From Escherichia coli (GTDB lineage: Bacteria; Pseudomonadota; Gammaproteobacteria; Enterobacterales; Enterobacteriaceae), in NCBI RefSeq assembly GCF_017348835.2, contig NZ_CP071375.1: a DNA stretch of 64,000 nt; one strand, 5' to 3'. A program made the position numbers. Every line of letters starts with the position of its first letter. Position 1 is the first letter of the stretch. Below, piece by piece: positions 45,643-47,402 of the stretch.

Positions 45643-47402
45643 TAACCACAAAGTGTTTATGGTGATGCAAAAGTAACGCATTTAATTCATTGAATATAAA
45701 GGGCTTTGATTTTTAGCCCTTTTATTTTTGGTGTTATGCTTTTAAATTTTATGCAAGTGCTAAAAATTACGTGTTTTGTCTTCAATTTTTGTTGTTTTAA
45801 TGTAAATTTTGACCATTTGGTCCACTTTTTCCTGCTCGTTTTTATTTCATGCAATCTTCTTGCTGCGCAAGCGTTTTCCAGAACAGGTTATATGATCTTT
45901 TTGTCGCTTAATACCTGTAAAACATGCATGAGCCACAAAATAATATAAAAAATCCTGCCATTAAGTTGACTTTTAGCGCCCATATCTCCAGAATGCCGCC
46001 GTTTGCCAGAAATTCGTCGGTAAGCAGATTTGCATTGATTTACGTCATCATTGTGAATTAATATGCAAATAAAGTGAGTGAATATTCTCTGGAGGGTGTT
46101 TTGATTAAGTCAGCGCTATTGGTTCTGGAAGACGGAACCCAGTTTCACGGTCGGGCCATAGGGGCAACAGGTTCGGCGGTTGGGGAAGTCGTTTTCAATA
46201 CTTCAATGACCGGTTATCAAGAAATCCTCACTGATCCTTCCTATTCTCGTCAAATCGTTACTCTTACTTATCCCCATATTGGCAATGTCGGCACTAATGA
46301 CGCCGATGAAGAATCTTCTCAGGTACATGCACAAGGTCTGGTGATTCGCGACCTGCCGCTGATTGCCAGCAACTTCCGTAATACCGAAGATCTCTCTTCT
46401 TACCTGAAGCGCCATAACATCGTGGCGATTGCCGATATCGATACCCGTAAGCTGACGCGTTTACTGCGCGAGAAAGGCGCACAGAATGGCTGCATTATCG
46501 CAGGCGATAACCCGGATGCGGCGCTGGCGTTAGAAAAAGCCCGCGCGTTCCCAGGTCTGAATGGCATGGATCTGGCAAAAGAAGTGACCACCGCAGAAGC
46601 CTATAGCTGGACACAAGGGAGCTGGACGTTGACCGGTGGCCTGCCAGAAGCGAAAAAAGAAGACGAGCTGCCGTTCCACGTCGTGGCTTATGATTTTGGT
46701 GCCAAGCGCAACATCCTGCGGATGCTGGTGGATAGAGGCTGTCGCCTGACCATCGTTCCGGCGCAAACTTCTGCGGAAGATGTGCTGAAAATGAATCCAG
46801 ACGGCATCTTCCTCTCCAACGGTCCTGGCGACCCGGCCCCGTGCGATTACGCCATTACCGCCATCCAGAAATTCCTCGAAACCGATATTCCGGTATTCGG
46901 CATCTGCCTCGGTCATCAGCTGCTGGCGCTGGCGAGCGGTGCGAAGACTGTCAAAATGAAATTTGGTCACCACGGCGGCAACCATCCGGTTAAAGATGTT
47001 GAGAAAAACGTGGTGATGATCACCGCCCAGAACCACGGTTTTGCGGTGGATGAAGCAACATTACCTGCAAACCTGCGTGTCACGCATAAATCCCTGTTCG
47101 ACGGTACGTTACAGGGCATTCATCGCACCGATAAACCGGCGTTCAGTTTCCAGGGTCACCCGGAAGCCAGCCCTGGTCCACACGACGCCGCGCCGTTGTT
47201 CGACCACTTTATCGAGTTAATTGAGCAGTACCGTAAAACCGCTAAGTAATCAGGAGTAAAAGAGCCATGCCAAAACGTACAGATATAAAAAGTATCCTGA
47301 TTCTGGGTGCGGGCCCGATTGTTATCGGTCAGGCGTGTGAGTTTGACTACTCTGGCGCGCAAGCATGTAAAGCCCTGCGCGAAGAGGGTTACCGCGTCAT
47401 TC

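Follow-up and report, generated by a model that had tools for sequence, protein, structure and literature searches.

Arginine Boxes at the Start of carA

The window analyzed here is a stretch of 64,000 nucleotides from Escherichia coli (contig NZ_CP071375.1) that contains the genes dapB, carA, and carB in this order, and the element under study is the interval 46052-46103 at the start of carA. The first-pass annotation, which was made from the sequence alone, described this interval as the carAB control region, with tandem ARG boxes abutting a TTG-initiated carA. Its coordinates and sequence strings were exact when the sequence was read, and two boxes, a Shine-Dalgarno sequence, and a TTG codon were found in the following arrangement.

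46052-46069: ARG box 1, TGTGAATTAATATGCAAA, 18 bp, with one mismatch to the consensus WNTGAATWWWWATTCANW
46070-46072: inter-box spacer, TAA, 3 bp
46073-46090: ARG box 2, AGTGAGTGAATATTCTCT, 18 bp, with three mismatches to the same consensus, abutting the Shine-Dalgarno sequence
46091-46095, plus strand: Shine-Dalgarno sequence GGAGG (GGAGGG to 46096), 5 nt before the carA start
46096-46100: spacer of 5 nt between the Shine-Dalgarno sequence and the start
46101-46103, plus strand: carA start codon, TTG
46101-47249, plus strand: carA, the glutamine amidotransferase subunit of carbamoyl-phosphate synthase; the RefSeq start agrees

The boxes begin 49 nt upstream of the carA TTG. Box 2 had been called partial, and this part of the description did not stand: it is a complete 18-mer at the canonical 3-bp spacing and is more degenerate than box 1. 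The translation from 46101 begins MIKSALLV and matches chain B of PDB entry 1CS0, the small subunit of E. coli carbamoyl-phosphate synthase, at 382/382 residues. Because this match runs over the whole length with TTG read as the initiator methionine, the carA start is fixed at TTG, and the same start is found in the K-12 RefSeq annotation, confirming the TTG initiation that had been proposed.

The window was then aligned with a K-12 derivative and with strains PE164 and EC42405. The K-12 carAB P2 operator (Piette 1984, Charlier 1988 and 1992; review by Charlier et al., PMC6245113) was identical over 46052-46103. The comparison with K-12, which had been proposed at first pass as a check, thus revealed no difference in the flagged 52 bp and none downstream of position -45 of promoter P1.

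Matrix Scores and the Possibility of Chance Palindromes

An ARG-box matrix was built by a palindrome-constrained de novo motif search for an 18-mer, with carAB left out. The training set consisted of nine upstream regions from the K-12 derivative (argF, argI, argE/C, argA, argD, argG, argR, artJ, and artP), and the search returned the classic ARG boxes, most of which came in pairs with a 21-bp distance. Box 1 scored 20.6 bits and ranked first among the ~64,000 positions of the window, and box 2 scored 13.3 bits and ranked fourth. The training boxes themselves ranged from 9.5 to 21.8 bits, and both carAB boxes fell within that range. The tandem sum of the two boxes at 21 bp was 33.8 bits with this carAB-free matrix, compared with a maximum of 18.9 bits in 300 random 64-kb Markov sequences and of 29.0 bits in 20,000 AT-rich 455-bp sequences modelled on the dapB-carA intergenic region. 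A single site as good as box 1 occurred in just 0.065% of the latter sequences. The ArgR matrix scores are therefore far above background rather than at background level. In a scan with the consensus WNTGAATWWWWATTCANW, box 1 was the only match at one mismatch in 64 kb.

It could be proposed that the boxes have no regulatory role and are AT-rich near-palindromes that arose by chance in an intergenic region that is itself AT-rich. The GC content around the boxes is 37-39%, and the consensus scan at three mismatches gave 17 matches in the window against 8.5 expected, indicating that weak sites such as box 2 arise by chance. Chance does not explain why box 1 is the top site in 64 kb or why the tandem score was reached in neither null set. 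Nor does it explain why the pair is kept at a fixed distance from carA across a bacterial order while the neighbouring spacer varies, or why the identical K-12 sequence was footprinted and mutationally defined as an operator. The matrix nulls and the phylogenetic footprint described below rule out this explanation, which we consider effectively refuted.

A third ARG-like box at 45735 (10.8 bits; tandem score 9.2) was also considered. It lies in the variable distal region, is not kept in K-12, and scores within the null range, and it was therefore rejected.

Position of the Boxes on Promoter P2

In K-12, the start points of promoters P1 and P2 are 67 nt apart, and the carA start is TTG (PMC6245113). 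Because P1 +1 is at 46001 (see below), P2 +1 would fall at about 46068, which gives the following candidate promoter.

46030-46068, plus strand: promoter P2 (candidate), with -35 TTGCAT/TTGATT at 46030-46040, -10 inside ARG box 1, and a putative +1 at about 46068

With this +1, the ARG boxes would span about -16 to +23 of P2. A location over the predicted -10 and +1 agrees with the report that ArgR and RNA polymerase exclude each other. In K-12, two 18-bp ARG boxes 3 bp apart are bound by a single ArgR hexamer; binding of ArgR and of RNA polymerase is mutually exclusive, repression is ~50-fold, and operator mutations relieve it (PMC6245113). The features found here were those of an ArgR operator: palindromes that match the consensus and the matrix, a 3-bp gap (21 bp from start to start), overlap with a promoter, and conservation in related species. 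We therefore interpret 46052-46103 as the textbook carAB arginine-repressor operator acting on P2, to which we assign a probability of about 0.96. From the present analysis, this interpretation rests on K-12 identity, matrix scores, spacing, order-wide conservation, and the positions of the P1 landmarks. ArgR binding, mutual exclusion with RNA polymerase, and ~50-fold repression are taken from the K-12 literature and are assigned to this locus because the K-12 experiments used an identical sequence. The original reading of the interval as the carAB control region is likewise supported by the K-12 identity, the ArgR matrix scores, and P1 landmarks at the published distances.

According to this interpretation, an arginine-loaded ArgR hexamer would bind both 18-bp imperfect palindromes cooperatively, and ArgR on boxes that lie over the P2 -10 and start would sterically exclude RNA polymerase from P2. 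Transcription from P1 would begin at 46001 and read through the ArgR operator. P1 itself would be governed by the upstream AT-rich region through IHF, PepA, RutR, and PurR sites, and further controls would be provided by UTP-dependent reiterative transcription at GTTTGCC and by a GC-rich discriminator for stringent control.

Several points weigh against this interpretation. Box 2 taken alone is a weak site, with its three consensus mismatches. P2 was not called by a simple promoter scan, and its start and hexamers are ones that we infer. The review describes the ARG boxes as partially overlapping the -35 element (PMC6245113), and the 67-nt arithmetic puts them over the -10 and +1 instead; this mismatch in wording does not affect the conclusion. 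The argR gene lies outside the 64-kb window, and ArgR binding in this strain is carried over from K-12. In addition, the conservation of box 1 could partly reflect its overlap with the P2 -10 region. None of the data contradicted the explanation as an ArgR operator.

The AT-rich sequence over P2 might also be mainly a site for a nucleoid protein such as Fis, and not for ArgR. Four Fis sites, one of them across P2, were predicted for the control region in a microarray study cited in PMC6245113. On P1 and P2 fragments, Fis seemed to bind non-specifically, and P1 and P2 reporters kept the same activity upon fis deletion, as the review reports (PMC6245113). Because the site also has the exact architecture of ARG boxes, we regard a primary role for Fis here as very improbable.

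Conservation of the Operator Across Enterobacterales

Related carA loci were collected from single genomes for each species by means of a degenerate anchor in the coding sequence (carA codons 10-17), which is independent of the operator and leaves synonymous sites free. After removal of three false matches, the related loci and the window made up 115 carA loci, representing at least seven families of Enterobacterales, namely Enterobacteriaceae, Erwiniaceae, Yersiniaceae, Pectobacteriaceae, Hafniaceae, Morganellaceae, and Budviciaceae, together with one non-Enterobacterales genome. In nearly all of the 115 loci, the TTG was preceded at -48 to -52 by the best tandem ARG pair. The core of box 1, TGAATTAATATGCA, was near-invariant across Enterobacterales, GGAGG preceded the start in 114/115 loci, and the carA start was TTG in 115/115. 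In an alignment of Escherichia, Salmonella, and Citrobacter, the conserved islands were the RUT box, the PUR core, GATC, the P1 -35, the P1 -10 with the discriminator and start, the P2 -35, and the operator. In Salmonella and Citrobacter, the P2 -35 region was kept and the spacer at 46041-46051 was variable.

These results bear on the proposal that the block is conserved as the P2 core promoter, 5' untranslated region (UTR), and ribosome-binding site, with ArgR recognition being incidental. Box 1 overlaps the putative -10 and start of P2, box 2 falls within the P2 5' UTR right next to the Shine-Dalgarno sequence, and conservation runs on into the Shine-Dalgarno sequence and the first 13 carA codons, all of which this proposal would accommodate. 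However, the positions of box 2 that are kept order-wide are those of the palindromic arms (TGA.T....ATTC), and the centre and flanks vary. Such arm-only conservation is the pattern of a dimer-binding site and not that of a UTR. Both boxes also score in the range of bona fide ARG boxes with a carAB-free matrix, at canonical 3-bp spacing. Conservation of the block for promoter and UTR functions with only incidental ArgR recognition therefore appears improbable, and an ArgR operator on P2 is preferred.

A good box pair was lost or degraded in the insect endosymbionts Candidatus Regiella insecticola, Serratia symbiotica, and an Arsenophonus aphid endosymbiont, all of which kept carA and its TTG. 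The non-Enterobacterales Ca. Rariloculus was likewise without a good box pair, and box 2 was weak in a stink-bug Pantoea symbiont, which also kept carA and its TTG, and in Edwardsiella hoshinae. Box loss in endosymbionts is the pattern that would be expected of regulatory decay. The operator and the TTG start are fixed across a bacterial order, with decay only in endosymbionts.

The P1 Control Region

The sequence upstream of the operator has a GC content of 27-38% across 45650-45999, compared with ~52-58% in the flanking genes. Published P1 distances were mapped onto the window with P1 +1 at 46001, and the following features were obtained.

45966-46007, plus strand: promoter P1, with -35 TTGACT at 45966-45971, a 17-nt gap, and -10 CAGAAT at 45989-45994 (promoter scan)
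45995-46000, plus strand: P1 discriminator, GCCGCC
46001-46007, plus strand: P1 +1 (G at 46001) and the reiterative-transcription tract GTTTGCC
45677-45714: region homologous to the IHF footprint, -324 to -287, mapped from PMC6245113
45683-45695, minus strand: predicted IHF core, ATTCAATGAATTA, with one mismatch to WATCAANNNNTTR
45721-45941: stretch corresponding to the PepA-wrapped DNA, -280 to -60, mapped from PMC6245113
45809-45824, plus strand: RUT box (predicted RutR site), TTGACCATTTGGTCCA, -192 to -177, with one mismatch to TTGACCANNTGGTCAA
45865-45880, plus strand: PUR box (predicted PurR site), GCGCAAGCGTTTTCCA, with its centre at -128.5, as published
45894-45897: Dam GATC site, with the A at 45895 (-106)

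In K-12, the P1 RNA starts with 5'-GUUUGC after a GCCGCC discriminator downstream of the -10. The K-12 landmarks are a Dam GATC (-106), a PUR box (centre at -128.5), and a RUT box (-192 to -177); hexameric PepA wraps -280 to -60 (~230 bp), and IHF binds -324 to -287 (PMC6245113). The RUT box, the PUR box, and GATC were all identical to K-12. Of the features that characterize the carAB tandem promoters, dapB-carA-carB synteny, a spacer of ~455 bp, the P1 discriminator with a G followed by a UUU tract, and the RUT, PUR, and Dam positions were present. The first-pass annotation had described 45700-45950 as an AT-rich block consistent with a multi-factor P1 architecture. The AT richness and the P1 landmarks were confirmed, and the first 30 bp of the block turned out to belong to the dapB terminator and 3' UTR (45698-45729) and not to the carAB control sequence.

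The individual sites that had been suggested for scanning differed in how well they could be recovered. The RutR scan gave a single match at the published position: 45809-45824 was the only match to TTGACCANNTGGTCAA in the window at up to two mismatches. For PurR, a scan with the symmetric consensus ACGCAAACGTTTGCGT at up to three mismatches did not recover the carAB PUR box, which is a weak match with more than three mismatches. This site is known to be weak, and it was validated instead by its position and its K-12 identity; the sequence GCGCAAGCGTTTTCCA was unchanged in four E. coli sequences. The IHF core in K-12 is AATCAATAAATTA, with no mismatch to WATCAANNNNTTR, and the window changes ATCAA to TTCAA; the IHF footprint region as a whole has four substitutions relative to K-12. 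The IHF consensus scan was uninformative, with 65 matches in the window against 58.7 expected, which is the background rate. PepA binding to DNA is non-canonical and is described only through footprints (PMC6245113). Neither the IHF site nor the PepA site can be validated with a matrix scan.

Across the collected loci, the PUR core GCAAnCGTTT recurred at the same distance across genera and was much more widely spread than the RUT box, which was present only in Enterobacteriaceae and Erwiniaceae, at -292 to -297 from the TTG. The GATC site was conserved in Salmonella and Citrobacter. The P1 start tract in Enterobacteriaceae was GCCGCC-GTTTGCC at about -109 from the carA TTG; in Yersiniaceae, Erwiniaceae, Morganellaceae, Pectobacteriaceae, and Hafniaceae it was CGCGCA- or CGCCCA-ATTTGCC at the same distance. 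Because both types of tract start with one base followed by TTT, three T residues in a row are kept order-wide.

A structured leader or riboswitch was also considered and rejected. The P1 5' UTR gave a fold with z = -1.7 (9 of 200 shuffles folded as well), and the Rfam search of the region returned only ES003 and a sub-threshold DapZ match, which are described below. These results gave no sign of attenuation at carAB, in agreement with the review (PMC6245113).

The ES003 RNA and a Possible Roadblock at the Operator

One Rfam family was matched at full length between P1 and the operator.

46001-46053, plus strand: ES003 (Rfam RF02750), cmscan score 87.4 bits (gathering score 37; E = 1.1e-17) over model positions 1-53 of 53

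In K-12, ES003 occupies 29551-29603, and its 5' end is a mapped start site (Rau et al. 2015). Because K-12 position 29551 plus the offset of 16,450 nt equals 46001, this provides an independent check of P1 +1. As an RNA of 53 nt, ES003 thus equals the 5' part of the P1 transcript up to the second base of ARG box 1. Its 3' end is without an intrinsic terminator and falls where a small hairpin of the Rfam consensus structure (46033-46053) ends.

This location suggests that the ArgR-operator complex, or an RNA polymerase parked at P2, might block some of the polymerases coming from P1 and so produce the 53-nt ES003, in which case the operator would act as a partial roadblock or attenuator. An RNA that extends from P1 +1 to the second base of box 1 and lacks an intrinsic terminator fits such an origin. 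However, a roadblocked polymerase usually halts more than 10 nt short of the protein edge, which counts against it, and a 3' end at the end of a hairpin fits a trimmed decay intermediate of the P1 leader. P1 activity has been reported to influence ArgR repression of P2, so the two systems interact, but ArgR has been reported neither to hinder P1 transcription nor to be an efficient roadblock (PMC6245113). In stationary phase, the level of ES003 was 133-fold below that in batch exponential phase (Rau et al. 2015), a decrease that is specific to no single explanation. We therefore consider a roadblock function unlikely; ES003 may be a blocked transcript, a processing product, or a decay product.

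Synonymous Constraint and a Potential Hairpin at the carA Start

The conservation described above continues into the coding region, where the following feature was found just outside the flagged interval.

46121-46139, plus strand: potential hairpin or inverted repeat in carA codons 7-13, with GGTTCT, the loop GGAAGAC, and GGAACC

The normalised synonymous entropy of carA codons 2-13 was 0.12, compared with 0.49 for codons 14-75 (Mann-Whitney p = 2e-5). In the RNAalifold analysis, the six pairs of the hairpin, which include four-fold degenerate sites, were unchanged in 67-69 of 69 distinct sequences. No covariation was observed in the hairpin among these sequences, which are invariant and hence offer none to test. 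Beyond the 3' end of the hairpin, the sequences cease to be invariant, even within the degenerate search anchor. In a metagenomic sample, taken as a look beyond Enterobacterales, the central pair could form in 11 of 18 carA genes encoding the same peptide, a marginal and GC-confounded result (permutation P = 0.047). It is possible, if on the doubtful side, that the carA initiation region carries an undescribed nucleotide-level cis-element. Such an element might tune initiation at the weak TTG, or it might bind an RNA or protein regulator, and it would then add a post-transcriptional layer to the control of carAB.

Neighbouring Genes and Other Features of the Window

The genes and the terminator adjoining the carA control region are as follows.

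44824-45645, plus strand: dapB, an open reading frame (ORF) at the same position as the annotated dapB in K-12, PE164, and EC42405
45698-45729, plus strand: dapB intrinsic terminator and end of the 3' UTR, with the stem AAAGGGCT/AGCCCTTT, a 9-nt loop, and a T-run
47267-50488, plus strand: carB, the large subunit and second gene of the operon, an ORF of 1073 aa at the position annotated

The dapB-carA spacer is 455 bp, as in K-12. The dapB terminator was missed by a simple terminator scan, because its 9-nt loop exceeds 8 nt, and it overlaps the IHF footprint region of carAB P1. DapZ (RF02551), a small RNA of the Salmonella dapB 3' UTR, matched at 45638-45729 on the plus strand with 24.8 bits against a gathering score of 56. 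Membership in this family was rejected, given a score below the gathering threshold and a match due mostly to the terminator hairpin.

At about 30.4-37.0 kb there is a low-GC island (31-42% GC), which contains a chaperone-usher fimbrial cluster (30393-36818, minus strand).

29431-30354: gene for a LysR-type regulator, adjoining the island
31366-33816, minus strand: fimbrial usher
33829-34512, minus strand: PapD-like chaperone
34562-35095, minus strand: fimbrial subunit

The ORFs at 30393-31076 and 35397-36818 in the island had no Pfam match. Several weak ARG-matrix matches fell in the island because it is AT-rich.

Comparison With K-12, Other Strains, and Other ArgR Operators

The coding identity of the window to K-12 was 97-99%, with 97.1% for dapB. 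Over the carAB control region, the identity to K-12 extended from -45 of P1 through carA codon 10, with the same P1 landmark distances. The 455-bp dapB-carA spacer has 25 substitutions relative to K-12, all of which are upstream of -45. Of these, 21 lie at -348 to -216, a segment made up of the dapB 3' UTR, the IHF region, and distal PepA-wrapped DNA, and three differences were found at -215 to -46 (98% identical). Among complete E. coli genomes, the 81 bp at 46030-46110 were identical in 5268/5425 (97%). The flagged feature matches the reference exactly, and few bacterial control regions have been analysed in such depth. It is useful as an annotation anchor and as a positive control, because a matrix from other arg promoters ranks it top in 64 kb.

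The distal region behaves differently, and its IHF and dapB 3' UTR portions are hypervariable within E. coli. The 145 bp after dapB (45646-45790), which hold the dapB 3' UTR and terminator, the IHF region with its altered core, and the first part of the counterpart of the PepA-wrapped DNA, form a rare allele that was found by megablast in 33/5426 E. coli genomes. Identity of at least 99% over this allele was observed in PE164 only, a strain that differs from the window by one base across the 3.4 kb compared. With this and the coding identity to K-12, the window is ordinary E. coli sequence. The dapB-carA intergenic region had three matches on plasmid-labelled records, and 1 of the 5426 complete E. 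coli genomes gave no match.

A close known counterpart is the carAB region of Salmonella enterica (Kilstrup 1988 and Lu 1992, cited in PMC6245113). From ATGAATTAATATGCAAATAAAGTGAGTGAATATTCTCTGGAGGGTGTTTTG on, the first two bases of box 1 alone differ, and P1 with GCCGCCGTTTGCC, the RUT box, the PUR core, and GATC are all kept. Divergence is seen in the P2 spacer, in the P1 leader, and in the distal region, where only 64-65 of 145 positions are identical. Among known RNAs, ES003 (RF02750) was matched over its full 53-nt model, yet it is not the flagged element but a fragment of the P1 leader with its end at the beginning of ARG box 1.

The other E. coli ArgR operators (argF, argI, argECBH, argA, argD, argR, artJ, artP, and argG) consist of 18-bp palindromes that fit the same matrix, mostly as pairs at a start-to-start distance of 21 bp that overlap a promoter, as at carAB. 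The carAB operator differs from them in two respects. It lies downstream of a second, ArgR-insensitive promoter and is hence transcribed through, and its box 2 is located in the 5' UTR, directly against the Shine-Dalgarno sequence.

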